NCBI GenBank assembly: GCA_963733035.1
Contig: CAVTBU010000005.1
Coordinates: 1,280,001-1,344,000, forward strand
Source: Pirellulales bacterium
GTDB lineage: Bacteria > Planctomycetota > Planctomycetia > Pirellulales > PALSA-1355
Reading direction: 5' to 3'
DNA: 64,000 bases
The notes beneath the pieces are model-generated. The model did not search any database and was not told where the DNA came from. It saw only the letters and a program-made list of their open reading frames with translations. Shown piece after piece: positions 40,461 through 61,266 of this stretch. Made by a program: the position numbers and the translations under genes. How positions within the stretch are numbered: the stretch's first letter is position 1; every line of letters starts with the position of its first letter.

Positions 40461-40632
40461 GCCAGCAAGCCACCAGCATGTATATACACGACAGCATAAC
40501 GATTAACCCGATCGGGTGGCCACGATTTGCTCGTGTCGTGGCGGACGGTTATGCTGCCGCGGAAGCAATTCTGGCGCCTTCGCGCACTTCGCAGGCGATC
40601 TCTGCATTCAAATCGACACCTTGGCAGTACCC

Positions 40633-42573
40633 ATGAGATCCGGATTACTCCCCCAACGTTTGACGAAGCGCGCGTTTGCCGTGCTTCTGCTGCATGCCGC
40701 CGTCTTTGCCCTGCTCTATCTTCTCTCGTGGGGTCTGCGGACCGAGTTCACGTTTACAGAAGATGACTGGGTCACGATCCTGGTCACCTTGCCGGGCGTC
40801 GTATTGATTCAAACCGGTGTCTTTTACTACGCGGGGCATTGCCACCGCTCGTGGTACAGCGTCTCGTTTTCGGACCTGGTGATGCTGTTCCATTCGGCCA
40901 CGCTCTCGTTATTGATCATTGCCACGCTCGATCGCCTGTTCGTGCGCGTTTTACATCTCTCGGCCGGCGTACTATTGATCGATTGGGCGATGGTGATCCT
41001 TGTGCTGGGTGGCATGCGAGCGGTTGGCCGGCTGTCGCGCGAGGAGCTCAGCCCCCGCCTCTGGCGAAGCGACTATCGCAAGGCGTTGATCGTTGGGGCA
41101 AATCAGTCGGGCGAAACCCTGGCCCGCCATCTGCTTTCCGACCGCCGACTGAAGTACCAACCCATTGGCTACCTCGATCACGACGCCAGCCGTATCGGTT
41201 CCACTTTTGGCGGGATTCCGGTCTGGGGTTTGCCTTCCAATGCGATTGAGATCGCCACCCGACTGGGCGTCGAGGACGTGCTCGTCATATCAGGCGTTTT
41301 AACCGGCCCTCAGCTCCGCGAGTTGATGGAGCGCGCGGCTGCGGCGGAGATCAAAATCAAGGTCATCCCCGCCTACGACGATCTGCTCTCCACCAACTAC
41401 GCACCGCAGATACGCGACGTCGACATCAACGACCTGCTGCGCCGCGAGCCCGTTGAACTCAACAGCGACGCAATCAGCTCCTTGGTCTCGGGCCGCACGG
41501 TAATGGTCAGTGGGGCCGGGGGCAGCATCGGCTCGGAAATCTGCCGCCAGGTGCTGAAGTTCCGCCCCAAAACCCTGCTGCTCGTCGAACGGGCCGAAAA
41601 CAGCCTGTTCCTCGTTGAGCAGGAGTTTCGGGCCCTTCGTACCGAAACGCAGATCGTGCCCTGCATTGCGGATATTACAGATCGCGACCGTATGTCGCAG
41701 ATCTTCAAGTCGCACCGCCCGGCCGTGGTCTTTCATGCGGCCGCTCACAAGCACGTTCCGATGATGGAATTCAACCCCGGCGAAGCCATCAAGAACAATG
41801 TGCTCGGCACGCGACAACTTGCCGAACTTTCAGACGAATTCGGCGTCCAGGAGTTCGTCATGATCTCGACCGATAAGGCTGTGAATCCGACGAGCATCAT
41901 GGGCGTCTCGAAGCAGCTGGCGGAACGGTTCATCCATGCGTTCTCCGAGAAGGCCGGCACGAAGTTCGTGGTTGTGCGGTTCGGCAACGTACTGGCGTCC
42001 AACGGCAGCGTGGTGCCAATCTTCCAGGAGCAAATCCGCCGCGGCGGTCCGATCACGGTTACGCATCCGGAGATTGAACGCTTTTTTATGACCATTCCCG
42101 AGGCCTCGCAGCTGGTATTGCAAGCGGCCGCGATGGGCAAGGGTGGCGAGATCTTCGTGCTCGACATGGGCGAACCGGTGCGAATTGTGGATTTGGCTCG
42201 CGATCTGGTGCGACTCTCGGGACTCACGGAAGCCGATATCGAAATCGTATTTACCGGCCTGCGACCTGGTGAAAAACTCTACGAGGAACTGTACTTCGAA
42301 GACGAAAAGATGCTGGCCACGCCACACCCCAAACTGTTCGTGGCCTATCACCGTCCTTATGCCTTGCCCGAGGTAGAGCAATCCATTTCCGAGGTCTCGG
42401 GCCTCATGCACGCCTCGCCCGACGTCTTGCGATTGAAAATCAAGGAGCTGGTCGCCGAATACGCGGAATCGGATTCGGCGCCATCCGTGCCCCCCGCGTC
42501 CGCCGAACAGCCCGCTGCGGACTCGCCAACCCGGCGTACCGGGGGGACCGCCAACGAGGCCCGCGTACAGTAG
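40633..42573 (+). CDS. Membrane-anchored UDP-HexNAc 4,6-dehydratase (WbpM/CapD/PglF family)
   Basis: Four TM helices; GAGGSIGSE, HAAAHKHVP, ISTDKAVNPT..MG.SK, VRFGNV, RFFMTIPEA and GLRPGEKLYEEL. Confidence 0.93.
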   Translation: MRSGLLPQRLTKRAFAVLLLHAAVFALLYLLSWGLRTEFTFTEDDWVTILVTLPGVVLIQTGVFYYAGHCHRSWYSVSFSDLVMLFHSATLSLLIIATLDRLFVRVLHLSAGVLLIDWAMVILVLGGMRAVGRLSREELSPRLWRSDYRKALIVGANQSGETLARHLLSDRRLKYQPIGYLDHDASRIGSTFGGIPVWGLPSNAIEIATRLGVEDVLVISGVLTGPQLRELMERAAAAEIKIKVIPAYDDLLSTNYAPQIRDVDINDLLRREPVELNSDAISSLVSGRTVMVSGAGGSIGSEICRQVLKFRPKTLLLVERAENSLFLVEQEFRALRTETQIVPCIADITDRDRMSQIFKSHRPAVVFHAAAHKHVPMMEFNPGEAIKNNVLGTRQLAELSDEFGVQEFVMISTDKAVNPTSIMGVSKQLAERFIHAFSEKAGTKFVVVRFGNVLASNGSVVPIFQEQIRRGGPITVTHPEIERFFMTIPEASQLVLQAAAMGKGGEIFVLDMGEPVRIVDLARDLVRLSGLTEADIEIVFTGLRPGEKLYEELYFEDEKMLATPHPKLFVAYHRPYALPEVEQSISEVSGLMHASPDVLRLKIKELVAEYAESDSAPSVPPASAEQPAADSPTRRTGGTANEARVQ

Positions 42574-42644: not shown

Positions 42645-43658
42645 ATGCCGGATTCGATGGACGAAAGTACTTGCGGGAGTGCATTCATCGCCGGCTTCGG
42701 CTCGATTGGCCGGCGACATTTCAATAATCTCCGCGCGCTCGGTTGCCACGACTTCGTCTTTTACCGCACATTTCAAGCAACCATTTCCGATCCGGCCACC
42801 GAGCAGTGGTACTCGACCAATCGCTTGTCCGAGGCCCTCGAGCGCCGACCGCGGATCGCCATCATCTCCAATCCCACGGCCAAGCATCTGGAAGTTGCCA
42901 CCGCGGCAGCGCGGGCGGGCTGCCACCTGTTGATCGAGAAGCCGCTTTCCCATTCGCTCGATGGCTGCCAGCAGTTGGCGGACATTGCCCGCGAGAAGCA
43001 CCTGACCGTGATGATCGGTTGCCAGTTTCGCTTTCACCCGTTGCTGATCAGCCTCCGCCGCCAGATGGCGGCGGGCCGGTTGGGGGAAGTGCTGGGAGCG
43101 CGAGCCGAGTGGGGTGAGTACTTGCCGGACTGGCACCCCTGGGAAGACTACCGCAAAAGTTACAGCGCGCGGGCCGATTTGGGTGGTGGCGTGGTCCTGA
43201 CGCTGATTCACCCGCTCGACTACTTGTACTGGATGTTTGGCCCCGTGCGGCACGTTTCGGCGTCGATTCGCAGCGTACCCAGCCTGCAAACCGTGGCCGG
43301 CGACGACTGGGCCGAGATCACGCTGCAATTCGACACGGGCGTCATTGGTCAGGTACATTTGGATTACGTGCAAAAACCCCCCGTGCATCGGCTGTGTGTG
43401 TGGGGCGATCGGGGCCGCGCAAACTGGGACTTCCACGCGGGAACTCTCGCTTGGCAACCGATCGAGGGTGACGTCGAAGTCGAACGCGTGCCGGAGGGCT
43501 TCGAAAGGAACACCCTTTTCGTCGACGAAATGCGAAGTTTCTTAGCGGCCGTCAGCGCCGGCCGGCCCAGCGAGATTCCGCTGGAAGATGGAATCGCCGT
43601 GCTGGATATTGCGGTTCGAGCCAAACAAGCGGCCCAGCGAGATTCGTGCAGTGCCTGA
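42645..43658 (+). CDS. Gfo/Idh/MocA-family oxidoreductase
   Basis: GFGSIGRRH, IEKP, YLPDWHPWEDYR.SYSA...GGGV...HPLDY. Confidence 0.9.
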   Translation: MPDSMDESTCGSAFIAGFGSIGRRHFNNLRALGCHDFVFYRTFQATISDPATEQWYSTNRLSEALERRPRIAIISNPTAKHLEVATAAARAGCHLLIEKPLSHSLDGCQQLADIAREKHLTVMIGCQFRFHPLLISLRRQMAAGRLGEVLGARAEWGEYLPDWHPWEDYRKSYSARADLGGGVVLTLIHPLDYLYWMFGPVRHVSASIRSVPSLQTVAGDDWAEITLQFDTGVIGQVHLDYVQKPPVHRLCVWGDRGRANWDFHAGTLAWQPIEGDVEVERVPEGFERNTLFVDEMRSFLAAVSAGRPSEIPLEDGIAVLDIAVRAKQAAQRDSCSA

Positions 43659-44485
43659 TTCGGTTCCGAAAATGTTCGATCTGACCGACCGTGTTGCCAT
43701 CTTGACGGGCGGCGCCGGCATGCTTGGTCGACAATACACGCGCCACCCTGCTCGAGGCCGGGGCCACTGTGATCGTGGCCGATCTGAACGGCGACCAGGC
43801 CAACGATGCCGCCGCGTCGGCGATCGACGCCGTCGGCGGACAAGCGGTGGGCTGGGGACTTGACGTCCGCCGCAAGGACGACGTTGAGCGGATGGCTCAG
43901 GCCGTCTGCGAACGTTTTGGACGTATTGATATCCTGATCAACAATGCCGCAATCGACCCCAAGCTCGACACCAATCTCGCCGACAAACTGGCCAGTACGT
44001 TCGAGGAGTATCCGCTCGAGTTGTGGCAGCAATCGCTCGACGTGAATCTCACCGGCGCGCTACTGTGCTGCCAGTCCGTGGGCAAGGTGATGCTGGCGGC
44101 CAAACGTGGCGTGGTCGTCAACGTCTGTTCCACGTACGGAGTCGTTGCTCCAGACCAGCGACTTTACAAGCGAGAAGGGGAACAGGAGCAAACGCTGTTC
44201 AAACCGGTGTCGTACGCGGTTACCAAGGCCGGCATTGCGCATCTGACTCGCTACCTGGCCGCGTATTGGGGCGGGAAAGGGATTCGCGTCAACACGCTGA
44301 CGCCCGGCGGTGTCCAGAACACGCAGGATGCCGAGTTCGTCGAACGCTATTCGGCGCGCACTCCGCTGGGGCGCATGGCCGCCGTCAATGAGATGAACGG
44401 CGCAATGCTGTTCCTGGTCTCTGACGCCTCGACGTACATGAACGGCGCGAACCTGGTGGTCGACGGGGGCTGGACCGCATGGTAA
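43651..44485 (+). CDS. SDR-family oxidoreductase (PtmA-like), frameshifted near 43743
   Basis: TGGAGMLG is in the frame of ORF 43588-43863. NNA, YAVTK, IRVNTLTPGG and VVDGG are in ORF 43724-44485. Removing one C in CGCCACC joins them. Confidence 0.88.
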
Positions 44486-45711
44486 AGCCTCCGGAAGTGC
44501 TCGCCATCGTGCAAGCCCGCGGCGGATCGAAAGGGTTGCCTCGCAAGAATCTTCGGCTGCTGGCCGGACATCCGCTGGTGGCCTATAGCGTCGCCAGCGC
44601 GCGGGCGGCCAAGGGGGTAACGCGAACGCTGATCTCCACCGATGATGCGGAAATTGCCGAAGTGGCCCAGGCCTATGGAGCGGAAGCGCCTTTCCAACGG
44701 CCTGCCGAACTGGCCGCCGACGACACTCCAGACTTTCCGCTGTTTGAGCACGCGTTGAACTGGCTGGCCGAACACGAAGACTATCGCCCACAAATTGTGA
44801 TTCAGTTGCGTCCGACGACACCGCTGAGACCGCGGGGAATGGTCGACGAGGCGATTGGAATCCTGCACTCCGACCCGGCGGCCGATTGTGTCCGCGGCGT
44901 TACGATCCCCAAACAAACGCCGTACAAAATGTGGCGCGACGGACCCGATGGGACGCTGCTGCCGCTGATGGATACCGAGTTTGCCGAGCCTTACAACATG
45001 CCCCGCCAACACCTGCCGGCCAGTTACTGGCAGACAGGGCACGTGGATGTGATTCGTGCGACCACGATTCTCGAGCAGCATTCCTTGACGGGCCAACGGG
45101 TGCGGCCGATCATGATCGACGTCAATTTTTGCGTCGACATCGATACGCTGGTCGATTTTGACCTGGCCGAGGAGGCAATCCGCAAGAAGCACCTCGACAT
45201 CGACATCCCGCGGCCGGTTGCCGGCGGGATGCTGCGGGGCTGGCCGCAGCCCATCGAACTGTTGGTATTCGACTTCGACGGTGTCTTCACCGACAATCGA
45301 GTCTACGTGTTTGAGGACGGACGCGAGGCGGTCGCATGCAATCGCGGCGACGGCATGGGGCTCGCCATGCTTCGCGATGCCGGTGTGCCGATGGCGGTGC
45401 TGTCGACCGAAACGAATCGCGTGGTCGATTCCCGCTGCCGCAAATTGAAGTTGGAATGCCGGCACGGATTGAGTGACAAGCGGGCGACGCTGGTCGAACT
45501 GGTGCGCGACAAGAACGTGAATATGAGCGGCGTGGTGTATGTGGGCAATGATGTAAACGACGTTGGTTGCATGGAGGCGGCCGGCTTTGCGATCGCCGTG
45601 GCGGACGCTCATCCCGCGGCGCGCGAAAAAGCGGACTTCGTACTTTCCGAGAGGGGAGGAGCCGGGGCCGTGCGAGAATTGTGTGACTTACTCCTGCAAC
45701 GAATGAGGTAA
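44479..45711 (+). CDS. Acylneuraminate cytidylyltransferase fused to a KdsC/YrbI-type HAD phosphatase
   Basis: ARGGSKGLPRKN, STDD, RPTTPLR and DID in the N-terminal domain; FDFDGVFTD, YVGNDVND and GGAGAVRE in the C-terminal domain. Confidence 0.93.
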   Translation: MVKPPEVLAIVQARGGSKGLPRKNLRLLAGHPLVAYSVASARAAKGVTRTLISTDDAEIAEVAQAYGAEAPFQRPAELAADDTPDFPLFEHALNWLAEHEDYRPQIVIQLRPTTPLRPRGMVDEAIGILHSDPAADCVRGVTIPKQTPYKMWRDGPDGTLLPLMDTEFAEPYNMPRQHLPASYWQTGHVDVIRATTILEQHSLTGQRVRPIMIDVNFCVDIDTLVDFDLAEEAIRKKHLDIDIPRPVAGGMLRGWPQPIELLVFDFDGVFTDNRVYVFEDGREAVACNRGDGMGLAMLRDAGVPMAVLSTETNRVVDSRCRKLKLECRHGLSDKRATLVELVRDKNVNMSGVVYVGNDVNDVGCMEAAGFAIAVADAHPAAREKADFVLSERGGAGAVRELCDLLLQRMR

Positions 45712-45719
45712 CCAGGATC

Positions 45720-46610
45720 ATGGCGCGTGTCGTTGAACTGAATGGGCGTCCCGTTGGCGACGGCCACCCGAACTACATCATCGCCGAGATCGGCATCAAC
45801 CATAACGGCAGCCTCGAAATCGCCAAAAAACTGATCGACGTGGCAAAGGCGGCCGGCTGCGATGCCGTTAAGTTTCAAAAGCGAACGCCCGAAAAATGCG
45901 TTCCCGCCGAGATGCGCGACAAGATGCGCGAGACTCCCTGGGGTTACATCTCGTACCTGGAGTATCGCTACAAGGTTGAATTCGGCGTCGAGGAGTTCAC
46001 CCAGATCGACAACTACTGCCGCGCCCAGAAGATTCAGTGGTTCGTCTCGTGTTGGGATCCCGATTCGGTCGACTTCATGAAGCCGTTTAACACTCCCTGC
46101 ATCAAGATTCCCTCGGCTTCGCTGACCGACAAGGAACTGCTGGAGGCCGTGCGTGATTCGGGCCACCCCGTCATGCTTTCGACCGGCATGTCCGATACCG
46201 GTCAGATCGACGCCGCCGTGAAGCTGCTGGGCACCGACAACCTGTTGCTGGCTCACGCCACCAGCACGTACCCCTGTCCCAAGGACGAACTCAACCTGCG
46301 CATGATCACGACCCTGCGGGCACAATACCCCTGCCCAATCGGCTATTCGGGTCACGAAGTTGGCCTGGCCACGACGCTGGCCGCCGTGGCGCTGGGGGCT
46401 TCGTTCCTGGAACGCCACGTCACGCTCGACCGTGCCATGTGGGGCAGCGACCAGGCGGCATCGATCGAGCCGGGTGGTCTGAAACGACTGGTCAAGGATG
46501 TGCGCAACGTCGAGATTGCGTTGGGCGACGGCAAAAAACGCGTCTACGAAAGCGAAGTCATCGCCGCCAGCCGGCTGCGACTGAAAGACACGCTCAACGT
46601 TTCCAAATAG
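45720..46610 (+). CDS. NeuB-family nonulosonate synthase, short form without SAF domain
   Basis: IAEIGINHNG, DAVKFQ, KIPS, LSTGM, STYP, GYSGH and ERHVTLD motifs; ends at 296 aa. Confidence 0.93.
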   Translation: MARVVELNGRPVGDGHPNYIIAEIGINHNGSLEIAKKLIDVAKAAGCDAVKFQKRTPEKCVPAEMRDKMRETPWGYISYLEYRYKVEFGVEEFTQIDNYCRAQKIQWFVSCWDPDSVDFMKPFNTPCIKIPSASLTDKELLEAVRDSGHPVMLSTGMSDTGQIDAAVKLLGTDNLLLAHATSTYPCPKDELNLRMITTLRAQYPCPIGYSGHEVGLATTLAAVALGASFLERHVTLDRAMWGSDQAASIEPGGLKRLVKDVRNVEIALGDGKKRVYESEVIAASRLRLKDTLNVSK

Positions 46611-46690
46611 CACCTTGACGCAAGGCTCGGCCGGCGACGTGTGGAGTGCGCCGTGCTTTCCGAAACCTCTTACGCGAAGCGAGGGTTCTG

Positions 46691-47644
46691 GTGAATCGCG
46701 ATTTTTGGCATGGTAAACGGATCCTGGTGACGGGTGGTTGCGGATTTGTCGGTCGCTGGGTGTGCCGAGCGCTCAAGCCCGCGGAGGTCGAGTTGCATAT
46801 CCTCGACCTGGCGCCGTCGGCTCATCTGGAAGAAAAACACACCTTTCATAAGACCGACTTGCGAGATCTGCAGGCCACGACCGCGCTCATCGACCAGATG
46901 AAGCCCGCCGCGATCATTCACCTGGCGGGCCAACCGGGAGTCGGCTCGTCGCACAACAACCCCGTGGGCGCCTACGAGGCAAACGTGCTGGCAACGTTTA
47001 ATCTCTTGGAAGCCTGCCGCGTCAAGCCGGGCGTGGAAGCCATCGTGGCCGTCTCCAGCAATCACGTTTATGGACAGCAACACAAACTTCCCACGCCCGA
47101 GGACGCGCCCCTCAATGGCGACGGCATGTACGCCGCATCGAAGCTGGCCGGCGACGTGCTGGCCCGGGCCTACGGCAAGACCTACCAGGTTCCCGTGGGC
47201 ATCGCGCGGATGACCAACTCCTACGGAGGCGACGATCACCACGTGGCTCACATCACCACGGCTACCTTACTTTCAGCGCTCAAGAACCAGCGCCCGGTCA
47301 TCAAACAGAGCGGCCGCGACTTGAAGGGCTATCTCTACATTGAGGACACGGCCGAGGGATTGCTGGCCGTGGCCGAAGGCGTGGCCGGGAAGCCAAACCT
47401 GCGCGGCGAGGCGTTCAACCTCGTGCCCAATGAAGCCGTGACGGTAATCGACCTGGTGCGCACGGTGCTCGACGTGGCGGGTTCCAAGCTGGAGCCCGAG
47501 ATTCTCAATCCGGGGGCCCACTACGAGGAAGAACATCTAGACAACACCAAAGCGCGAGAATTGCTGGGGTGGACGCCGGCCCACAATCTGCGGGCCGGTC
47601 TTCAGAAAACCCTCGCGTGGTATCGCGCGCACGGGCAAGCTTAG
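46691..47644 (+). CDS. NAD-dependent sugar epimerase/dehydratase (extended SDR, RfbG-like N-terminus)
   Basis: FWHGKRILVTGGCGFVG, HLAGQ and YAASK motifs. Confidence 0.88.
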   Translation: MNRDFWHGKRILVTGGCGFVGRWVCRALKPAEVELHILDLAPSAHLEEKHTFHKTDLRDLQATTALIDQMKPAAIIHLAGQPGVGSSHNNPVGAYEANVLATFNLLEACRVKPGVEAIVAVSSNHVYGQQHKLPTPEDAPLNGDGMYAASKLAGDVLARAYGKTYQVPVGIARMTNSYGGDDHHVAHITTATLLSALKNQRPVIKQSGRDLKGYLYIEDTAEGLLAVAEGVAGKPNLRGEAFNLVPNEAVTVIDLVRTVLDVAGSKLEPEILNPGAHYEEEHLDNTKARELLGWTPAHNLRAGLQKTLAWYRAHGQA

Positions 47645-47704: not shown

Positions 47705-49219
47705 ATGCTGAAGAAACTACTCAACCTGCTCTCCGACGCCTCGGTATACGGCCTCAGCTCGATGCTGGCCCGCATCGTGCAGTTCGTGCTGTTGCCGATC
47801 CTGACGAGATACCTCACGACCGCGGATTACGGCACGGTCTTCATGCTGTCGATTTTGTCGACGCTGTTCGGGCCGCTGTCGAACCTGGGCATGACCAATG
47901 CCTTATTCCGGCGTTACAACCTCGACAAGGATCCGGCGAGCCGATCGGAGCTTTTCGCCACCGCGCTAGCCAGCGTCACCATTGGCTCGGTGGTCTTAAT
48001 GCTAATCTGCATGGTTTTCGCCGGACCACTGTCGACCATGCTGCTCGGAAACGCGACGGGGGCCGGCTACGTACGTGTCAGCTTGCTAACCGCCGCCATT
48101 GCCTCGGTCGGGCAGGTACCCTTCGTCACGCTGCGAGCCGCGCGACGAGTCAAAACGGCGGCCGCCATCAATCTTGCCAAGCTGCTGATTTCCGTATCGG
48201 TGACGTTGTGGCTGGTGGTCGTGCTCGAAGCAGGCGTTTGGGGTGTGCTGTTCGGTACGCTCGTTGGCGAAACAAGCGTGCTGCTGGCTCAACTGGCGCT
48301 GACTTTTCGCTCGTTCCTTGCCAAGGCAACCTGGTCTGCTTGGAAGCGAATGTCGTCCTACGGGTTGCCGTTTGTTCCGCATCGAATTCAGGCGGCGGGC
48401 ATCGAGTTGTTTGGGATCTATATGGTTGGCGAAATGCTCGGATTGCAGGCGACCGGCATCTACGGCACCGCCGTGAAACTCGCAGCTCCGGTGACGTTTG
48501 TCGTCGGTGCGATCCAAGCCTCTTGGGTACCCTACAAGTTTCAGATCCATGCCGAAGATCCCAATCCGGCCTCCTTTTTCCAATCCAGCTTTCTCTACTA
48601 CATCGCCGGACTTTCCTACCTGTGGGTGGGCGTTTCGCTGTGGGGCCCCGACGTGGTGCGACTGATGACCGCACCCGAGTACCACGCCGCCACGCACTTG
48701 GTTTGGGCCGTGGCACTCATTCCCGTCTCACAGGGAATTTATTTCATGTGCAGCACGGGAATCGAGCTGAGCGAAGATACGCGGACCTTCCCGCTGGTCA
48801 GCTTGGCTGGCTTGATCGTTGTGGTGACTGGCGCGTTTGCCCTCGTACCGCTGCTGGGCGCCCTGGGTGCGGCATTGGCTACCGTGTCTGGCTGGATCAC
48901 GATGTCGAGCGTGGTTTTCGTGCTTTCGCAGCGACGCTTCCGCATTCATTACGACTGGCCCACGGTGTTCATGTTTATCGCCTTGGCCGCGGCCTTCGTC
49001 GTCGCAGGCATGAACATTCAGGAGCAGTCGCTCGTTCTGCGGTTGGGGTCGCTAACACTGCTCTCGCTATTCTATCCGGTGGTTGGATATTTGTTCCTGC
49101 TACGTTCGCGGCATGAACGCGAACGCATGTCGCTGCTGGCGGCTCGATTGAGAACCGTGCCTGCGCTTGTCAGAGGAATACCAAAACGTCTACGTGGGTC
49201 CGGAGACACCGCTCCATGA
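47705..49219 (+). CDS. wzx: Wzx oligosaccharide flippase
   Basis: About 14 hydrophobic segments; LLPILTRYLTTADYG N-terminal pattern. Confidence 0.88.
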   Translation: MLKKLLNLLSDASVYGLSSMLARIVQFVLLPILTRYLTTADYGTVFMLSILSTLFGPLSNLGMTNALFRRYNLDKDPASRSELFATALASVTIGSVVLMLICMVFAGPLSTMLLGNATGAGYVRVSLLTAAIASVGQVPFVTLRAARRVKTAAAINLAKLLISVSVTLWLVVVLEAGVWGVLFGTLVGETSVLLAQLALTFRSFLAKATWSAWKRMSSYGLPFVPHRIQAAGIELFGIYMVGEMLGLQATGIYGTAVKLAAPVTFVVGAIQASWVPYKFQIHAEDPNPASFFQSSFLYYIAGLSYLWVGVSLWGPDVVRLMTAPEYHAATHLVWAVALIPVSQGIYFMCSTGIELSEDTRTFPLVSLAGLIVVVTGAFALVPLLGALGAALATVSGWITMSSVVFVLSQRRFRIHYDWPTVFMFIALAAAFVVAGMNIQEQSLVLRLGSLTLLSLFYPVVGYLFLLRSRHERERMSLLAARLRTVPALVRGIPKRLRGSGDTAP

Positions 49220-49851
49220 GGCTTGTATTTCGCGCCCTCCGCGGGCTGCTGGTGCGGCCGATTCGCGAAAAATATCTGTTCTGGGAGGTCGTCACGGAAC
49301 TCGAAAGTCTGGCCAAGATCGGTCTGGGAGTAAATGTCAACGGCCCCGTACATTTCGGTAACCCACAGGGTACGACCCTGAGCGAGGACGTATCGATCAA
49401 CCCCGGCTTCGTATGCAAAGGAGGTGGCCGACTTCACATTGGCGCGCACGCGCATTTTGGCAACCAGGTGACTATTCTCACGCAAAACCATCGATACGAG
49501 GCCGCTGACTCACTTCCCTACGACAAGACAAGAATCAATAAGGGTGTTGTTATTGACGACTGCGTGTGGGTTGGCGAACGAGTGATGATTATTCCAGGCG
49601 TCCATGTGGGCGAAGGGGCGATTCTGGCGGGCGGTTCGGTCGTCACCCGCGACGTGCCGCCGTTGGCCATCGTCGGAGGGGCTCCGGCCCGGGTCATCCG
49701 CTACCGTGATCCCGAAGCCTATGAGTCGCTCAAAGCCGCCGGCCGCTTTGTCAATTGGCCTCGCGACTTCGACCTGGTTAATCGACGGCGAATCCAATTG
49801 CGTAGAACGCACGTGGACGAAAGCGCTACGCCACAGCATGGCTCCATCTGA
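49216..49851 (+). CDS. Left-handed beta-helix O-acyltransferase
   Basis: Hexapeptide repeats; IDDCVWVG...GVHVGEGAILAGGSVVTRDVP...GGAPAR. Confidence 0.9.
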   Translation: MRLVFRALRGLLVRPIREKYLFWEVVTELESLAKIGLGVNVNGPVHFGNPQGTTLSEDVSINPGFVCKGGGRLHIGAHAHFGNQVTILTQNHRYEAADSLPYDKTRINKGVVIDDCVWVGERVMIIPGVHVGEGAILAGGSVVTRDVPPLAIVGGAPARVIRYRDPEAYESLKAAGRFVNWPRDFDLVNRRRIQLRRTHVDESATPQHGSI

Positions 49852-51400
49852 TTCCCCAACAGCACCGGCGGGCTCGGCGGCAGTCAGCCACGAGGCCGTT
49901 CTCCGCTGGCTGGACAAGGCCCGAGTGTCCATGGCCGAGCAGCCGTTTGCGGAGCTCTTTGAATGTGCCAACGTCGATGCCATCGACGTCATGTTCGGGG
50001 AGCTCTATCTGGCGGTACTGGCCGCGGTGCGGCACGGCCCCGCACGTCCCCCGTCGCTGCCACGCCAGGCGATCGCTTCGGCACGCAACTGGGCCTATCA
50101 GGCCAAAATGACGTTGCGCGAAAGGGCCGCTTGCCGGCTGGCGACGCCTCCCACCGCGGCCGACTTTTTGCTCTGGTCGCGAGACTTTACCCATGCAAAT
50201 GTCCTCGTACCCGTGGCTCGGGCGCTGGCTTCGCAGGGCGCGAAATGCCAATGGCTGGCTTGTCAGCCGAGAGCGGTTGAGGAACTACTTAGTTGCGGCG
50301 TCCAGACAGCTTACACCGTGGCTGCGTGGCCGGAAGTCGCTCGTGCCGCGCGGCGCGCGGGAGCTCAACGGGCGCGGGAGTTGTCTCGCACCCAACACTG
50401 GAATCTGCCCGACTTCGACGAAGTGCCCGGCTCGAACCTCGAACATCCTCTCCGCGACGCGATCTGCACGATGCTGCCGATCGTCGCGGAAGCGGTGGCG
50501 AACTCGCAGGAAGCGCTTCGCCGCGTGCAACCCAAGGCCTTGATCGTGGGCAACGACCTAACCATCGAGGGACGCGCCGGCTGCCGCGTGGCCGAGACCC
50601 AAGGCGTGCGCACGGCCGTGTTCATGCACGGCTCGATCAGCGGCATACCAACCCAATCTCACCACTGCACCGACCGGATCTTCGTGTTTGGAGAATTTCA
50701 CCGCCACGAACTCCTCGAACGAGGAATCCCAGATCAACGAATCGTCGTGTGCGGCGACCCCAAGCTGGACGACCGCCAGCGGCAGACCGGCAAGATTCAC
50801 CCGCAGCTCAAGACCCGCTTCGGCCTGAGCGACGGCGCGCCTTGGATCCTCGTTGCCACCAGCGGGCCAGGGCATCGCGTGTCGCACCGACATCATGCGC
50901 AGATTGTGGCCGGCCTGTTCGATTTGGCCCGAGCAGTACCCGAGGTGCCGATTGTGGTGAAGCTGCATCGCAAGGATCGTCTCGAATACTATCAATCGCG
51001 CCTCGATTCCGCCGCTGATTCGCGTGTTCAGGTGGTACCGTTCGGAACGCCCGGCCTGCCATCCGACATTTTTGACTGGCTGCAGGGCTGCAGCCTGGTG
51101 CTGACCGGTGCGTCAACGACCGCGACCGAGGCAATGGTGATGGACGTTCCGGTGGTTACAATGGATTATTGTGGCGAGCTTTATCACATCGACTTCATCG
51201 ACGCCGGCGCGACGGTCCACGTGACGACTCCCGCCGAACTCGTGGCGGCCGTCCCGGACGTTCTTGCCAGCGGCCGGCTGCCCGACGCCACGGCGGCCCG
51301 CATGCAAGAATTCCTCAAAGGCACTTTCGGCGCTTTGGACGGCAAGTCGTCCGAGCGTGCCGCCAGCTCGCTCCGCGAGTTGGCTGGCATCGCACCATGA
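49838..51400 (+). CDS. GT-B-fold protein, candidate nonulosonic-acid transferase
   Basis: MHG, GDPKLD, VKLHR and STTATEAMVMDVPV match the pattern seen in CMP/CDP-donor GT-B enzymes; located in the NulO module. Confidence 0.55.
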   Translation: MAPSDSPTAPAGSAAVSHEAVLRWLDKARVSMAEQPFAELFECANVDAIDVMFGELYLAVLAAVRHGPARPPSLPRQAIASARNWAYQAKMTLRERAACRLATPPTAADFLLWSRDFTHANVLVPVARALASQGAKCQWLACQPRAVEELLSCGVQTAYTVAAWPEVARAARRAGAQRARELSRTQHWNLPDFDEVPGSNLEHPLRDAICTMLPIVAEAVANSQEALRRVQPKALIVGNDLTIEGRAGCRVAETQGVRTAVFMHGSISGIPTQSHHCTDRIFVFGEFHRHELLERGIPDQRIVVCGDPKLDDRQRQTGKIHPQLKTRFGLSDGAPWILVATSGPGHRVSHRHHAQIVAGLFDLARAVPEVPIVVKLHRKDRLEYYQSRLDSAADSRVQVVPFGTPGLPSDIFDWLQGCSLVLTGASTTATEAMVMDVPVVTMDYCGELYHIDFIDAGATVHVTTPAELVAAVPDVLASGRLPDATAARMQEFLKGTFGALDGKSSERAASSLRELAGIAP

Positions 51401-51449: not shown

Positions 51450-53411
51450 ATGTGTGGCATTGTAGGACTTTGGAACATCGCAACGCCGCATCCGCTCGCC
51501 AACGTGAGCGCGATGTTGGATGCCATGCGGCACCGAGGGCCTGACGGTCGCGGTACCCTCGAATATGCCGGGGGCGCGGCCGGCATGGTGCGATTGGCGC
51601 TCGTCGATCTATCCGACCGTGGACAACAGCCCCTCTGGTCGGACGATCGCCGCGTGGCGATTCTGTACAACGGCGAAGTCTACAACTTCCGCACTGAGCG
51701 CAAGCGGCTGGAAGCCGCCGGCCATCGGTTCCGCACCGGCACCGATACCGAAGTCGTACTGCATCTTTATCTGGAGCACGGCCCCGACTTTCACAAGTAC
51801 CTGCGGGGAATGTACGCCCTGGCCTTGTTCGATTGGCGCAACACGACGCCCGAGGCCCTGCCAGAACTGCTCTTGGCTCGCGGCCCGCTAGGCGTCAAAC
51901 ACCTCTATGTCGCCAACCCTGGCGGCGACCGTCGGAGCGTGATTTTTTCCTCCGAGATTCGCGCTTTGCTGGCCTCGGGTTTGGTGCCGCGCGAAGTCGA
52001 TCAGCCGGCGGTGGCGGATTTCCTTTCGGTCGGGTTCGTGCCGCAACCGCAAACGCTAATCACCGGCGTGCGAATGCTCGAGCCCGGTGCGTTCGAGCAT
52101 TACATTCCGGGTCGAACGGAGGTATTCCGAAGATTTTGGCACATGCCTCCCTACGAGCCGCGGCAGGAGTCGTTCGACGATGCGGCGCAGCGCTTGCGCG
52201 CACTGCTCGACGAAAGCGTCAGGCTGCACTCCATGGCCGACGCGCCGGTCGGTGCATTTCTCTCGGGCGGCATCGACTCGACGGGCATCGTGGGCCTGAT
52301 GCGAAAGCACGTTCCCGACCTGAGAACCTACACGCTGAGATTTCCCGACGTCGCCGGCAGCGACGAGTCGGCCGAGGCCGAGGCCGCTGCCCGGAAGTTC
52401 GGCTGCCAGCAGACCACGGTCGACGTCACCGGACGCGACGTTGCCGAGATCTTGCCCCGCTTCGCCGGCGACATGGATCAACCCACCAAGGACGGCTTGA
52501 ACACGTATTTGGTTTCGCAGGCAGCGGCGCACGATGTGAAGGCCGTGCTTTCCGGTGTTGGCGGCGACGAATGGTTCGCCGGCTACCCGGTGGTGCGGCG
52601 CATGACGCGCTATGCCACGACACCCGGCGGTCGGCTGCAAGCCTTGGCCGGGTCGGCCGCCAATGTCGCCTTGCACGGCGTGCCGCAAGGCCGACTCCGT
52701 GAACGGCTGGAAACCTTGGCAACGCGGCGCAGCGCGCTTTCAACCTGGCTACAACCTCACACGGTGTTTCGTCCTTCGCTCGCTCGCCGGCTGGCCGGAA
52801 TCTCCCAGCAGGGGCGCTCGCTCGAAAGCAAGTTCGCCGAATTGCTTACCGAGGATTTCGGCGATTGGTCGAAAGAAACGCCGATCGGCCTGTCTTGTCT
52901 GCTCGATAGTCAGGTCTTCATGACGCATCAGCTGTTGCGCGACTCGGACGCGGCCAGCATGGCCCACTCACTCGAATTGCGCGTGCCGCTGGTCGACCTG
53001 GAGCTGGCCGCGTTTGCCCGCAGCTGCCGCGATGACTATCGACTGCGGCCCGACGGCGGCTCGAACGACCGCTATCACGGCAGTGGCGCCAAGCGCGTGC
53101 TGATTGCCGCCTTGCAAGATGTGTTGCCAGATTCGATCGCGGAGCGGCGTAAAAAGGGTTTTGCCTTGCCCTTCGAGAAATGGATGACGACGGACCTGGC
53201 GCCGTTGGTGGAGGATACTTGCGGGCAAGACAGCGTGCGGCGGCGCGGCCTGCTGGATCCCGCGGTCGTTTCACAGTTGCATGCGGCCGACCGGACGCGA
53301 ATGCCGGCCTATCCTTGCTTATGGACCGTGATGATGCTGGAATTGTGGTGTCGGGCCGTGATCGACACGGGCCGCAGCGAAATGCTTCCTCGCTCGGCAA
53401 TACGAGCCTAG
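51450..53411 (+). CDS. AsnB-like glutamine-dependent amidotransferase (polysaccharide amidation, WbpS-like)
   Basis: MCGI N-terminal Cys, HRGPD, NGEVYN, FLSGGIDS, SGVGGDE, SMAHSLELRVP and KKGF. Confidence 0.9.
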   Translation: MCGIVGLWNIATPHPLANVSAMLDAMRHRGPDGRGTLEYAGGAAGMVRLALVDLSDRGQQPLWSDDRRVAILYNGEVYNFRTERKRLEAAGHRFRTGTDTEVVLHLYLEHGPDFHKYLRGMYALALFDWRNTTPEALPELLLARGPLGVKHLYVANPGGDRRSVIFSSEIRALLASGLVPREVDQPAVADFLSVGFVPQPQTLITGVRMLEPGAFEHYIPGRTEVFRRFWHMPPYEPRQESFDDAAQRLRALLDESVRLHSMADAPVGAFLSGGIDSTGIVGLMRKHVPDLRTYTLRFPDVAGSDESAEAEAAARKFGCQQTTVDVTGRDVAEILPRFAGDMDQPTKDGLNTYLVSQAAAHDVKAVLSGVGGDEWFAGYPVVRRMTRYATTPGGRLQALAGSAANVALHGVPQGRLRERLETLATRRSALSTWLQPHTVFRPSLARRLAGISQQGRSLESKFAELLTEDFGDWSKETPIGLSCLLDSQVFMTHQLLRDSDAASMAHSLELRVPLVDLELAAFARSCRDDYRLRPDGGSNDRYHGSGAKRVLIAALQDVLPDSIAERRKKGFALPFEKWMTTDLAPLVEDTCGQDSVRRRGLLDPAVVSQLHAADRTRMPAYPCLWTVMMLELWCRAVIDTGRSEMLPRSAIRA

Positions 53412-53482
53412 ACGAAAGAGGACCAAGCCCTTTGGAGCGCAAGAACAACTCCTCGAATGGTGCGACACCCGTTAGCCCGCGG

Positions 53483-55168
53483 ATGTCGAAATCGCTAGCC
53501 GATACCGTGGTGCTGGTGCCCGCGGCCGGTCGGGTGGCTGAGGGCGTGATGGCGCTTTCGAACATTGGCTGCCCGGCGATGGTCCCCGTGGCCGGCCGAC
53601 CGGTCATTCACTGGACGCTCAGCTATCTCCGCTCGCTGGGTTTGCGGCGGTTCATGATTGCCGTGTCGCGACGGGGCATGTTCGTCGAGGATTTCGTCGA
53701 GTGCTCATTCGGCCAGGATTGCGAGATCACGTTCCTATTGCCTTCGGCCGATGGCGGCGTGGGTCGTACCGTGCTTGATCTGGCCCAGCAGGCAAGCGGC
53801 AATTCGGCACTTGTGGTCCTCGGCGACACGCACTTTCAGTTTGCCGACCCGGCGATTCTCGAGCGTGACGAGGCCGCGGTACTCGTCGACAATGTCGAGG
53901 ATTCCTATCGCTGGTGCACCGCCGAGACCGACGAGCAAGGCATGATCACCGCCTTGCACGACAAGGAGCCCGAACTGCCGGGCGTGCTCAAGGCCTTGAT
54001 TGGCGTTTACTACTTTCCATCCCTGCAAGAATTGGAAGCGGCAGCCAGCCAGGCCGTGGCGCAACACGAGCCGGCGGGCGAGCGCACGGAATTCGCCGAC
54101 ATTCTCAAGCTCGTCAACCAACAGCGGCCCATTCGCGCAGTGCAGGCCGGTGACTGGCTCGACTGCGGCAATCCCGACCGCCAAGCCAGCTCGCACCGTA
54201 CGCTCCTGCAAAAACGCGAATTCAATGAGCTATCGATCGACAGCGTCCTCGGCACGGTCACCAAACGCAGTCGCTACGTTGAAAAATTTCTGGACGAGAT
54301 CAACTACCTGCGGCTGCTGCCGCCCGAGTTGGCCGTGCTCTTCCCGCGCGTGCTCGGCTATTCGACCGATTGGCAAGACCCCTGGGTCACGCTCGAATAC
54401 TACGGCTATCCCACGCTGGCCGAGGCGTTCGTGTTCGAAAACGTCGATCCGGGGATCTGGGAACGCGTATTCGTGCATCTGCGCGATATCATCGTGCAGG
54501 GCTTCATGCGCCACCGCCGCCCCCTCTCGCCCGAGGTGCTCGAGGAAATGTATCTCGGCAAAACCCGCACCCGATTGGCGCGACTCGACGCACCGCCGGA
54601 ACTGCTTTCGCTAGTACGGCATGCGGGCCAGGTGACGATTAACGGCCGCGAGGTCGATAACCTGCCGCTGCTCTGGAACCGTTTGGAAGTCGACGTCGAG
54701 CGGCTGGCTGAAAACGTTCAGGGATGCGTTGTGCACGGTGACCTGTGCCTGTCGAACATTCTCTACGATCTTCGCTCTCGCGTCTGCAAGTTCATCGACC
54801 CTCGCGGCAGCTTCGGCACCGCCGGCATCTACGGGGATCCGCGATACGACGTGGCAAAGCTCTACCACTCGATCTACGGCTTGTACGACTTCATCACCAA
54901 CGATCTGTTTCACGTGGAGATCGCGGGCAACCGCGTCGAGTTGGATATTCGCTCCCGCCCACAACATCAGCAGATTCAAGAACGATTCGAAAAGGTATTC
55001 TTTGCCGACTTCGATCGACGGGAGATTCTCTTGATCACCGGCTTGCTGTTTGCCAGCATGCCGGCCTTGCACTACGACGCTCCGCGGCGGCAAATGGCGA
55101 TGTACGCCCGGGCGTTGCAATTGTTCGGCGAAGCCTACTCTCCATCCCCCACAGCCGAAACCGTTTGA
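53483..55168 (+). CDS. Nucleotidyltransferase-like domain fused to an APH/choline-kinase-like phosphotransferase
   Basis: VLVPAAG...PVAGRP, LGDT and WLDCG in the N-terminal half; REFN linker; HGDLCLSNIL, IDPRG and GDPRYDVAKL in the C-terminal half. Confidence 0.85.
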   Translation: MSKSLADTVVLVPAAGRVAEGVMALSNIGCPAMVPVAGRPVIHWTLSYLRSLGLRRFMIAVSRRGMFVEDFVECSFGQDCEITFLLPSADGGVGRTVLDLAQQASGNSALVVLGDTHFQFADPAILERDEAAVLVDNVEDSYRWCTAETDEQGMITALHDKEPELPGVLKALIGVYYFPSLQELEAAASQAVAQHEPAGERTEFADILKLVNQQRPIRAVQAGDWLDCGNPDRQASSHRTLLQKREFNELSIDSVLGTVTKRSRYVEKFLDEINYLRLLPPELAVLFPRVLGYSTDWQDPWVTLEYYGYPTLAEAFVFENVDPGIWERVFVHLRDIIVQGFMRHRRPLSPEVLEEMYLGKTRTRLARLDAPPELLSLVRHAGQVTINGREVDNLPLLWNRLEVDVERLAENVQGCVVHGDLCLSNILYDLRSRVCKFIDPRGSFGTAGIYGDPRYDVAKLYHSIYGLYDFITNDLFHVEIAGNRVELDIRSRPQHQQIQERFEKVFFADFDRREILLITGLLFASMPALHYDAPRRQMAMYARALQLFGEAYSPSPTAETV

Positions 55169-56734: not shown

Positions 56735-57982
56735 TTGAATTCCAGGCCGCGAAAAGTCCTGCACGTTCTCAATAGTGCGACCGGCGGCGCCGCGCTGAGC
56801 ACGCTCGGGCTGATGCAGCGCTTTCGCCGTGAGGGAATCTTGGCGTGCGCCGTTTGCCACGACGCCGGCAGCCGGCAAGAGCGCGACGCCTTGCGCGAGA
56901 TGTGCGATGGGGAAGTCTGTTTCACGACTCTGTACTGGTGGAACAAGAAGATTCGCGTGCCGCGCTGGAAACGCCCTCTCAGTGAGATCAAGCAAATACT
57001 GCGCACCGGCTGGACCAAGAAATCAACTCGCACCGTCGCGGATTTCGCTCGCTCGCACCATGTCGATCTCATCCACACCAACACAATTCTCACGCCCGAG
57101 GGAGGCAACGCGGCCATGCAACTCGGCCTGCCACACGTCTGGCATGTGCGCGAATTGATCGGCGCGGGAACGCCCTTTCCGCTGGGGCTGTCCGAGGCGG
57201 CCCTAGGGCGCTACCTTGCGGCACACTGTTCCAAACTGGTCGCCAATTCCGAATCGACGGCCAGCCGCCTGCGTCCCTGGGTCCCGGCCGGCCTGCTCGA
57301 AGTCGTCTACAACGGTATCGACTTGGACCGATTTCAACCCCGCGAAGGCCCGGCCCAGCCCGACCGCCTGGTCGTCGGCATGGTGGGCAACCTGACGAGC
57401 CATTGGAAGAAACATCATCTGGTCGTCGAAGCAGCCACGCACGTCGACCGATCACTCCCGATCGAGTGGCGTTTTTATGGACACGATCCGTCGCACGGTG
57501 GAACGAAAACCGGCGATGCCTACGTCGACGCCATGCACGCCCGCCTGGCAACGACCGGCTTGAAGGACCGCTTTCACTTCCCCGGTTTTGTCGAGGATCC
57601 GGCGCAGGTCATGTCGCAGCTCGATATCCTGGTCCACCCGGCCGACCAGGAATCGTTTGGCCGAATAATCGTGGAAGCAATGGCCGCGGGCATCCCGGTT
57701 GTGGGAGTTCGCGGCGGTGCGGTCGTCGAGACCATCCGGCACGGCGTCACCGGCTATCTGGCAGAGCCGGACAATCCCGTGGAAATCGCCGCGTACATCG
57801 AGCGGCTGGCGCGCGACTGCCAACTGAGGACCGCGCTCGGCCAAGCCGGAAGGCAGCGAGCCTTGGCCGAGTACTCGCTCGACGCCAGCGCGGCCGGTAT
57901 GCTACGAGTTTACGAGCAGGCTATGGAACGTCCGCTGGGCCACCCGTCCGCCAAAGGAACTCAAATCACCGCCCACGGCTGA
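56735..57982 (+). CDS. GT4-family glycosyltransferase
   Basis: VYNGID and ESFGRIIVEAMAAGIPVV (EX7E). Confidence 0.9.
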   Translation: MNSRPRKVLHVLNSATGGAALSTLGLMQRFRREGILACAVCHDAGSRQERDALREMCDGEVCFTTLYWWNKKIRVPRWKRPLSEIKQILRTGWTKKSTRTVADFARSHHVDLIHTNTILTPEGGNAAMQLGLPHVWHVRELIGAGTPFPLGLSEAALGRYLAAHCSKLVANSESTASRLRPWVPAGLLEVVYNGIDLDRFQPREGPAQPDRLVVGMVGNLTSHWKKHHLVVEAATHVDRSLPIEWRFYGHDPSHGGTKTGDAYVDAMHARLATTGLKDRFHFPGFVEDPAQVMSQLDILVHPADQESFGRIIVEAMAAGIPVVGVRGGAVVETIRHGVTGYLAEPDNPVEIAAYIERLARDCQLRTALGQAGRQRALAEYSLDASAAGMLRVYEQAMERPLGHPSAKGTQITAHG

Positions 57983-58104
57983 CGCGGCGGCTCGAAATCC
58001 GAGCGCCACGAGATTAACGTCAACGTCGCGTAGACCAACCATCAACCTGCCGCCTCGGCTAACTGGGCTCGGCCTGTGTTTGCGGTGGAGGACATAACTT
58101 ACCC

Positions 58105-59163: not shown

Positions 59164-59247
59164 ATGCTACAATAGAAGAAATCGGAACGCCCTTGGCAAA
59201 TTGCCCCCCACACTGCCGGTTCCGCGCGGTGTTACCAGTCTGACGCA

Positions 59248-60560: not shown

Positions 60561-61266
60561 CCAAGAGCTCCATCGGCGAGTCCCAGCGAATTCTTGCCGA
60601 ATACGAACGGCGAGATCGCGTTCTGCCGCGCGATTACTACGGCCTGCACCACCTTCCCAACTTGTTCCGACACCAGGAGCACGAAAGGACCCTGGTGCGA
60701 TGTTTGCAACACAGCCGACAGATTCCGTTCACGGACAAGCACATCCTCGATGTCGGTTGCGGCGAAGGCGATTGGCTGCGCGTGTTTGAAAGCCTGGCGC
60801 AAGTCAGCAGCTTCTTGCGGGAATCGAACTCGGACCGGACCGTGCCGCGACGGCACGCGAGCGGTTGCCCCAAGCCGATATTCGCGCTGGCGATGCCACG
60901 GCTCTGCCCTGGCCCGACGAAAGCTTCGATGTGGTGTTCCAGCGAATGATGTTCAGTTCCATCCTTGACGCCGATACTCGGCGGGCCGCCGCCAGCGAGA
61001 TGATGCGTGTCGCCCGCCCCAGTGGCGCCATCGTGTGGGTCGATTTTTTTGTCAATCCCACGAACCCCAACGTCCGACCGATCGGTCGCAAGCAGATCCG
61101 TGCGTTGCTCCCGGGTTGGCGGGGAACCTTCTATCGCACGACGCTTGCCCCGCCGCTGGCACGTCGCCTGGTGCCGATCTCCTGGACGTTCGCCCGACTG
61201 TTGGAATCCCTGCGAATTCTCAACACCTTTCATTTCGCCGTGTTCGTGCGGGAAGCCCACGCGTAG
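60557..61266 (+). CDS. Class I SAM-dependent methyltransferase, frameshifted near 60796
   Basis: ILDVGCGEG motif I. Adding one G restores LGASQQLLAGIEL...GDATALPWPDESFDVV...RVARPSG. Confidence 0.85.

Follow-up and report, generated by a model that had tools for sequence, protein, structure and literature searches.

A predicted Kdn-type nonulosonate cassette with a linked oxidoreductase pair in a polysaccharide locus of a Pirellulales bacterium

Bacteroides thetaiotaomicron and the alga Prymnesium parvum are reported to make the nonulosonic acid Kdn (3-deoxy-D-glycero-D-galacto-non-2-ulosonic acid) by condensing mannose 6-phosphate (Man-6-P) with phosphoenolpyruvate (PEP) to Kdn-9-P, which is dephosphorylated to Kdn and then activated to CMP-Kdn (CMP, cytidine monophosphate). 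A cassette that resembles this route is found in a Pirellulales bacterium (assembly GCA_963733035.1, contig CAVTBU010000005.1, positions 1,280,001–1,344,000 of the forward strand), in a stretch of 64,000 nt that was analysed over its full length and is called the window below. It consists of a Gfo/Idh/MocA oxidoreductase (Gfo), a short-chain dehydrogenase/reductase (SDR), a CMP-ulosonate synthetase fused to a phosphatase of the haloacid dehalogenase (HAD) type, a short synthase of the NeuB family and an extended SDR, all encoded on the same strand (Table 1) within a larger co-directional Wzx/Wzy polysaccharide cluster. The five contiguous genes and their families had been listed in an original prediction for this stretch, and they are indeed present, co-directional and at the coordinates listed there. 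The one entry that had to be amended is the SDR, which spans two frames and has its glycine-rich N-terminus from about position 43672. The explanation that we prefer, with no more than moderate confidence, combines a Kdn-type core using the phosphate route with a redox-altered sugar; the phosphate-route, Kdn-type core taken alone appears probable.

Like the systems of B. thetaiotaomicron and Prymnesium, the cassette combines a NeuB-family synthase with a KdsC/YrbI-type HAD phosphatase and a CMP-synthetase, a set that does not need a 2-epimerase. It differs from that of B. thetaiotaomicron in that the phosphatase (BT1713 in that organism) is here fused to the CMP-synthetase and scores 88 bits on the B. 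thetaiotaomicron model, and in the addition of the SDR/Gfo pair.

A second counterpart is found in Streptomyces. The S. coelicolor operon SCO4879–4881 is described as encoding NeuE-like, NeuA and NeuB proteins and as belonging to a cluster that is activated by PhoP and serves a wall polymer free of phosphate; another paper reports that the main decoration of Streptomyces walls is a teichulosonic acid of Kdn and galactose. From these two reports we infer that the operon is linked to Kdn. A locus of Streptomyces sp. NBC_01384 (L081) encodes a polysialyltransferase-like protein, a GT2 glycosyltransferase, a DUF6716 protein, a NeuA-HAD fusion and a short NeuB, the last being the sole NeuB-family gene of that genome. 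The Pirellulales cassette shares with the Streptomyces operon a NeuB without SAF domain (60–62% identity), a NeuA-HAD fusion directly upstream of it, an adjoining protein of the GT-B glycosyltransferase type and membership of the same NeuB clade. Unlike the cassette, the Streptomyces operon has no SDR or Gfo gene, includes a polysialyltransferase-like gene and serves a polymer of the wall, not a polysaccharide of the Wzx/Wzy type. A knock-out study is also reported to have linked the Streptomyces operon to Kdn.

The oxidoreductases are reminiscent of loci for other nonulosonates. In a published gene table, the genes for an SDR (~254 aa), a CMP-synthetase and an oxidoreductase (~326 aa) are direct neighbours in the legionaminic acid (Leg) loci of Plesiomonas, Vibrio and Escherichia coli. 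The adjoining SDR, CMP-synthetase and oxidoreductase genes of the cassette resemble the PtmA/LegF(PtmB)/PtmF triad of Campylobacter, Plesiomonas, Vibrio fischeri and the E. coli elg locus, although those Leg loci come with a SAF-bearing LegI and a NeuC-type LegG and without a HAD domain. In an Acinetobacter prophage, EpaA (a CMP-transferase/aldo-keto reductase fusion) and EpaB (an SDR) are described as converting pseudaminic acid (Pse) to 8-epi-Pse in vivo, and related SDRs have been proposed for acinetaminic acid (Aci) and 8-epi-Aci. Like EpaA/EpaB and the Aci/Ela systems, the cassette has two oxidoreductases, one of them an SDR of the adh_short_C2 family, tied physically or genetically to a CMP-transferase domain, and the known pairs are described as altering one stereocentre of a finished nonulosonate. 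In those systems, however, the SDR is paired with an aldo-keto reductase in place of a Gfo/Idh/MocA protein, and the substrates are 5,7-diacetamido-9-deoxy sugars. The gene table bears out the earlier statement that oxidoreductase pairs beside CMP-synthetases accompany Leg loci, and the 8-epimerisation of Pse by two oxidoreductases has been demonstrated genetically.

The order of the two domains in the fusion protein is that of vertebrate CMAS, and the C-terminal domain of the mouse enzyme (3ewi) is among its matches in the PDB. The KdsC-like C-terminal domain of vertebrate CMAS is catalytically inactive, whereas the HAD motif residues are all kept here.

Synthase, fused phosphatase and sugar supply

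Gene families were assigned by Pfam and NCBIfam profile searches of the open reading frames (ORFs) of the window. Neither Pfam nor alignment revealed a C-terminal SAF domain or tail in the NeuB. Its best NCBIfam model, NeuB_NnaB (TIGR03569), is matched over profile positions 2–271 of 329 with 254 bits, below the equivalog cut-off of 399.65, and the PseI equivalog TIGR03586 is matched with 200.6 bits (cut-off 340.25). The best solved relative is 6ncs, a short NeuB of 290 aa (144 bits); SpsE, PseI and the meningococcal synthase of N-acetylneuraminic acid (Neu5Ac) score 103–120 bits. The sequence blocks shared with 6ncs, SpsE and PseI, which we take to be the catalytic motifs, are preserved in the alignments.

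The synthase belongs to a very large and tightly conserved family of 258–314 aa proteins in the protein database, the at least 120 listed members of which are 70–94% identical and have PF03102 as their sole domain. In a collection of species-representative genomes, NeuB relatives are encoded in 595 of 602 candidate stretches; the best 80 of these relatives (NeuB 59–67% identical) provide the 80 loci referred to below, which span Chloroflexota, Chlorobiota, Bacteroidota, Actinomycetota (Streptomyces, Acidimicrobiia), Acidobacteriota, Pseudomonadota and others. The SAF tail of ~45–58 aa is missing from all 80 homologues and from the planctomycete homologues of at least 47% identity. Planctomycete NeuBs at 35–43% identity have a 45–58-aa tail or larger fusions, with the exception of two short sequences, L115, the frame of which is truncated where the locus ends, and the long-branched L121. 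A maximum-likelihood tree was built by a quick method from 110 rows, none of them a biochemically characterised enzyme; scores against equivalog models and PDB entries stood in for BT1714, the Prymnesium synthase, human NANS, LegI and PseI. In this tree, 84 rows without SAF domain group in one clade (SH-aLRT 97) apart from a SAF-bearing planctomycete group of 23 rows (SH-aLRT 97). The window NeuB is placed within the SAF-less clade and shares with Streptomyces, Bacteroidota and Chlorobiota a sub-clade of support 92; it is predicted to be a ulosonate-9-phosphate synthase. SAF-less NeuBs of environmental bacteria, including Streptomyces, also cluster in a published large phylogeny, where they are left without an assigned function.

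The HAD domain encoded beside the synthase is of the KdsC/YrbI type and has intact catalytic motifs, the residues D265, D267, K334, D358 and D361 being invariant over fused, stand-alone and KdsC sequences (alignment A1). It reaches the cut-off of TIGR01670 (107.0 bits versus 106.95), and scores 87.9 bits against a cut-off of 180 on NF058599, the equivalog for Kdn-9-P phosphatases of the B. thetaiotaomicron type. The CMP-synthetase/HAD fusion matches the PseF model below its cut-off (127 bits), and its PDB matches also include 6ifd and 3mmz. In 72 of the 80 loci (67 of the 71 having at least 1.5 kb of upstream sequence), a HAD homologue is encoded no more than 6 kb from NeuB, mostly starting 0.4–0.7 kb upstream; by the thresholds of this analysis, 54 loci have it as a fusion with the cytidylyltransferase. 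For the stand-alone HADs beside clade NeuBs of Hymenobacter, Saprospirales and Chlorobaculum, the best model is the B. thetaiotaomicron Kdn-9-P phosphatase, with 144–159 bits, under the same cut-off of 180. Among a sample of 200 genomes of other planctomycetes, a HAD is found beside NeuB only for three homologues of at least 49% identity and for one at 41%. A literature search returned no usable paper on the residues that set HAD specificity for KDN9P or KDO8P.

The genome that contains the window is 92.28% complete and encodes one true NeuB; two weak PF03102 matches coincide with sub-cut-off matches to the KDO8P-synthase family. Genome-wide, nothing was found for NeuC (TIGR03568, E ≤ 0.001), NanE (PF04131) or WecB, and no Epimerase_2 match apart from the GT-B ORF at 49931–51400. 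The earlier observation that the window has no NeuC-type 2-epimerase, kinase for N-acetylmannosamine (ManNAc) or PseG-type hydrolase is thus confirmed, and for NeuC it extends to the whole genome. A type-I phosphomannose isomerase (PMI) is encoded (catalytic domain 53 bits, above cut-off; type-II PMI, PF01050, gave a sub-threshold match only), which provides for Man-6-P, and source genes for ManNAc or diacetamido sugars are not visible in the genome. Elsewhere in the genome are a canonical KdsA (375 bits, above cut-off, on contig C7), a second CTP_transf_3 gene that is KdsB-like (173 bits) and a separate KdsC (152 bits). With this set present, the cassette can be ruled out as the genome's Kdo machinery. 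The separate Kds set, the lack of visible ManNAc supply and the PMI together mark the cassette as a second ulosonate pathway.

The phosphorylated, NeuC-independent, Kdn-like route of the original prediction is well supported because the synthase sits in the HAD-linked SAF-less clade, the HAD motifs are intact, Streptomyces combines an orthologous operon with Kdn-bearing walls, NeuC, NanE and WecB are lacking, and a PMI is present. In the route that we propose, the SAF-less NeuB would condense PEP with a hexose 6-phosphate, most likely Man-6-P, to a nonulosonate 9-phosphate of the Kdn type. The 9-phosphate would be taken off by the HAD part of the fusion, and the N-terminal domain of that protein would activate the free acid with cytidine triphosphate (CTP). 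The substrate and the nine-carbon product are what we infer from the gene content, as are the step at which the oxidoreductase pair acts (hexose phosphate, free acid or CMP-sugar) and the carbon that it alters.

The oxidoreductase pair

The spacing of the cassette genes is operon-like: 13 nt separate Gfo from the true start of the SDR, the SDR and NeuA genes overlap by 7 nt, and the gap between NeuA and NeuB is 8 nt. The same 7-nt overlap between the SDR stop and the cytidylyltransferase start is seen in Chloroflexota. The Gfo proteins of such modules in Chloroflexota, Bacteroidota and Acidobacteriota are reciprocal best matches to the window Gfo (256–288 bits versus at most 119 for paralogues), and so are the module SDRs to the window SDR (236–261 bits versus at most 103 for others). 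By these reciprocal scores, the window Gfo and SDR are genuinely orthologous to a pair that accompanies the core.

An SDR is found in 46 of the 80 loci, a Gfo in 36 and both in 34; in the 48 loci that are fully flanked, SDR and Gfo occur together in 27, the SDR alone in 4 and the Gfo alone in none. The Streptomyces and Chlorobiota loci have neither gene, so the pair is dispensable for the core pathway. In the Hymenobacter loci the Gfo is absent and the SDR stands beside a class-III aminotransferase and a split transketolase, an arrangement that fits an SDR making a ketone which is then reduced or aminated by a second enzyme. The gene order in Hymenobacter setariae (L055 4642–12155) is split transketolase, class-III aminotransferase, SDR, stand-alone HAD, SAF-less NeuB and a protein of the fatty-acid-hydroxylase family. 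Close SDR homologues (E ≤ 1e-45) occur in 4 of the 200 other planctomycete genomes, and 3 of these lie within ~7 kb of a NeuB gene, which is once of the SAF type. In another planctomycete genome, a close SDR homologue with 44% identity directly follows a SAF-type NeuB (367-aa frame; G116:C5:14799–16656), which means that the SDR subfamily is not confined to the SAF-less clade.

The extended SDR has a different distribution. A five-gene module had been described, and five genes do adjoin here, but only four of them are conserved across phyla. An extended SDR beside NeuB was not found in the 80 genome loci; it follows NeuB in two of three near metagenome relatives, L142 (82% identity) and L145 (65%), and on this distribution it is a lineage-specific neighbour of NeuB that is kept in near relatives only. 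Models and solved structures place it only generally among the 4,6-dehydratases and epimerases of nucleoside diphosphate (NDP) sugars, with 148 bits on the dTDP-glucose 4,6-dehydratase model and 100.8 bits versus 475 on LegB (TIGR04180), both below cut-off.

Three-frame translation and alignment place the start codon and the Gly-rich NAD motif of the SDR in one frame from ~43672 and the remainder in the frame of the ORF at 43724–44485; homologues lack one base that is present here near 43743. A contig from a public sequencing run (X1), a single contig of depth 2.7 that possibly originates from the source sample, is identical over 43696–43873 except for exactly one letter missing at 43743. Three further runs (X2–X4) cover small shares of the stretch only and are uninformative at position 43743. 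The SDR is a single intact frame in the relatives L142, with a NeuB of 91% identity, and L145. The window's uvrA gene (minus strand, 36358–39412) is split as well, with the ORF 37361–39412 corresponding to positions 4–620 of the UvrA model and the overlapping ORF 36358–37455 to positions 619–941. On account of the X1 contig, the intact relatives and the second split gene, both frameshifts are probably assembly indels; a recent genuine inactivation of the SDR is conceivable.

The best single reading of the pair would be that it oxidises and then reduces one carbon of a Kdn-type sugar in two steps. SDR and Gfo would act as a unit, one oxidising a hydroxyl to a ketone and the other reducing it with opposite stereochemistry, and the sugar reaching the polymer would be a Kdn epimer or another redox variant, not plain Kdn. 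That the pair makes the product differ from plain Kdn has, in our estimate, about an even chance, perhaps a little less. A more specific suggestion, that the pair, here joined by the extended SDR, turns Kdn, its phosphate or its CMP form into a chemically undescribed stereoisomer or a keto or deoxy derivative, is put forward tentatively and is rather doubtful. The literature search found no paper assigning a Kdn-modifying role to such an SDR/Gfo pair.

The surrounding locus and competing explanations

The polysaccharide locus surrounding the cassette contains genes for a flippase, a polymerase, several glycosyltransferases and other sugar-modifying enzymes (Table 1).

Table 1. Genes of the cassette and of the polysaccharide locus in the window.
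Feature	Position	Strand	Evidence
PglF/CapD-type membrane-anchored NDP-HexNAc 4,6-dehydratase	40516..42573	+	PF02719, 397 bits; first gene of the polysaccharide locus
Gfo/Idh/MocA NAD(P) oxidoreductase, PtmF-like position	42645..43658	+	PF01408, PF22725, PF02894
Classical SDR, PtmA-like, in two frames	43672..44485	+	adh_short_C2, 166 bits; remainder is ORF 43724-44485
CMP-ulosonate synthetase (residues ~6-240) fused to KdsC/YrbI-type HAD phosphatase (~257-408)	44479..45711	+	PF02348 (CTP_transf_3), TIGR01670
SAF-less NeuB-family synthase, 296 aa	45720..46610	+	PF03102 as only domain, 261 bits
Extended SDR, NDP-sugar epimerase/dehydratase type	46646..47644	+	PF01370, 162 bits
Wzx-type flippase	47705..49219	+	PF01943, PF13440
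Hexapeptide-repeat acetyltransferase	49216..49851	+	PF00132; several O/N-acetyltransferase models below cut-off
GT-B protein, 489 aa (call of the source record), distant Epimerase_2 relative	49931..51400	+	Epimerase_2, 55 bits
Asparagine-synthase-type amidotransferase	51450..53411	+	TIGR01536, 370 bits, above cut-off
NTP_transferase/APH-type kinase fusion	53297..55168 (or from 53180; start uncertain)	+	PF00483, PF01636
GT1, GT2, Wzy-like polymerase, GT1, GT2 (in order)	56735..63771	+	Pfam
DegT/DnrJ/EryC1 sugar aminotransferase, start only, runs off the window	63790..64000	+	PF01041, 365 bits at G000:C5:1343817-1344974

The relative L142 repeats the gene order of the window from the PglF-like gene through the NTP_transferase/kinase fusion. 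The PglF-like gene, which matches the PseB model with 186 bits (cut-off 407), has the same position there and 81% identity. The fusion has weak RmlA-like matches in the PDB and a counterpart in L142 that is 74% identical from query residue 40 on; it may be a sugar-1-kinase and nucleotidylyltransferase in one protein, for a salvage-type sugar activation. Beyond the window end (L137 790–4935 = G000:C5:1343790–1347935), the DegT gene is followed by genes for a NodU/CmcH-type carbamoyltransferase and a small PglC-type phosphoglycosyl transferase (Bac_transf), and genes for a UDP-sugar dehydrogenase and another epimerase follow at a distance of a few kb. PglF, DegT, an acetyltransferase and a PglC-type transferase are the usual set for an initiating sugar of the N,N'-diacetylbacillosamine (diNAcBac) type. 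We read the corresponding genes of this locus as making such a sugar, and the PglF-like dehydratase probably serves it and not the ulosonate.

The 489-aa GT-B protein matches TIGR04396 below cut-off (63 bits) and the DUF6716 and GT1 models with 17–19 bits, and the only PDB matches of its family profile are 2-epimerases (22.6–26.7 bits), among them a hydrolysing diNAcBac 2-epimerase. It aligns with module-flanking GT-B proteins of Chloroflexota and Streptomyces with an hhalign probability of 61–63%, a weak link that only profile–profile comparison gave; pairwise BLASTP against the Streptomyces DUF6716 protein was not significant (E = 0.12). For five GT-B homologues, the length recorded for the longest contig is the same as for a close NeuB homologue; we take these to be shared contigs, although equal length is no proof. 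We read the protein as the likely CMP-ulosonate transferase.

The cassette loci of Anaerolineales (L010, L015, L004, L025 and other Chloroflexota) have sulfotransferases and an ATP-sulfurylase/APS-kinase fusion nearby, a neighbourhood that suggests a sulfated glycan. Chloroflexota loci also encode a D-2-hydroxyacid dehydrogenase, an MptE-like protein and, directly after NeuB, a conserved GT-B protein of ~539 aa. Other features of the window, without relation to the cassette, are a DUF11/CARDB repeat protein at 4582–6684 and a cyclophilin fused to dockerin/EF-hand-like repeats at 15986–17014.

Several observations weigh against the explanation that we prefer. The SDR is frameshifted in the assembly, and the evidence for an error consists of one contig of depth 2.7 and the intact relatives. 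For the fused HAD, the KdsC model (127 bits) outscores that of the Kdn-9-P phosphatase (88 bits), and neither equivalog cut-off is reached. SDR, CMP-synthetase and Gfo also occur together in loci that make ordinary, non-epimerised Leg, and because of this the pair need not epimerise anything. The PglF-like, acetyltransferase, DegT and Epimerase_2-like genes of the same locus would fit a diamino-sugar route; these genes, together with the PglC-type gene, weaken the original notion of a non-aminated pathway, of which the NeuC-independent core stands. If the core worked as proposed while SDR and Gfo, perhaps with the extended SDR, supplied or recycled a precursor or acted on another sugar of the repeat unit, the product would be plain CMP-Kdn. 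This would accommodate the triad of the ordinary Leg loci, the match of the SDR to the PtmA equivalog NF050062 (110 bits, cut-off 350) and a locus that makes several other sugars. We nevertheless regard it as unlikely, as Streptomyces and Chlorobiota run the NeuA-HAD/NeuB core without the pair, a PMI is already at hand for Man-6-P supply, and the SDR overlaps the CMP-synthetase gene both here and in Chloroflexota. In the Leg pathway, PtmA and PtmF are assigned to precursor supply.

A Leg-like diamino nonulosonate would arise if the PglF-like or extended-SDR dehydratase, DegT, the acetyltransferase and the Epimerase_2-like protein fed NeuB, with SDR, Gfo and NTP-transferase in the roles of PtmA, PtmF and PtmE and the 489-aa protein as hydrolysing 2-epimerase. 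A candidate can be named in the locus for every role of that pathway, including a DegT-family aminotransferase for that of LegC, and the epimerase ancestry of the 489-aa protein is the main support for this explanation. The epimerase matches are very weak, however, and the same protein also matches GT1 and DUF6716 and can be aligned with GT-B proteins that flank the module in other phyla. The NeuC/LegG model finds nothing in the genome, and the scores on the PtmA and LegB models stay below their cut-offs. NeuB lacks the SAF domain of the cited LegI (359 aa) and sits in the HAD-linked clade, and a 9-deoxy route would leave the intact HAD domain without a job. No DegT was seen in the Pfam-scanned recurrent gene clusters of the 80 loci, which gave only two weak, sub-cut-off Epimerase_2 matches, and the DegT of this locus is equally explained by the usual initiating set with PglF, acetyltransferase and PglC. 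A Leg-like product is on these grounds quite improbable. Still less credence is due to Neu5Ac made by the animal-type route, in which ManNAc-6-P and PEP give Neu5Ac-9-P, followed by dephosphorylation and CMP activation. The architecture of synthase, HAD and CMP-synthetase is the same and NeuB_NnaB is the best NCBIfam model of the synthase, but its cut-off is not reached, the genome has no NanE, NeuC or other Epimerase_2 gene, and Streptomyces with the orthologous operon is reported to carry Kdn. We likewise think it very improbable that the NeuB-type enzyme starts from a pentose or heptose phosphate and that the product is a C8 or C10 ulosonate. The HAD domain does score best on KdsC models, yet a full KdsA/KdsB/KdsC set is present elsewhere in the genome, scans of the locus turned up no gene for a heptose-phosphate isomerase or kinase, and the Streptomyces orthologues, as described in the same reports, point to C9.

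Novelty and biological meaning

The core design of a Kdn-type phosphate route has precedents in B. thetaiotaomicron and an alga and, as far as can be inferred, in Streptomyces, which weakens the earlier suggestion of a possibly undescribed sugar. Taken by itself, the window is a modest gain, adding one more carrier, a planctomycete in which the cassette is part of a Wzx/Wzy locus. The lineage-specific extended SDR is also new here, as is the quantified association in which Gfo never occurs without SDR in the fully flanked loci. No paper on Kdn synthesis in Planctomycetes was found in a search that relied partly on titles and abstracts. A cultured carrier of the full cassette exists in Bellilinea caldifistulae GOMI-1 (locus L048), and Streptomyces, with the core and without the pair, is the natural comparison.

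Nonulosonic acids cap bacterial surface glycans and shape their recognition by phages, lectins and sialidases. To our knowledge, what is known of their biosynthesis comes almost wholly from pathogens with NeuC- or PseG-type routes. The loci described here suggest that a Kdn-type pathway using the phosphate route is common in environmental phyla, often with a fixed oxidoreductase pair, the chemistry of which we propose from its genes. Should the pair alter the sugar as proposed, the occurrence of the four-gene cassette in at least six phyla, including Chloroflexota, Acidobacteriota, Bacteroidota, Pseudomonadota and Planctomycetota, would mean that an undescribed nonulosonate is widespread on environmental bacteria.

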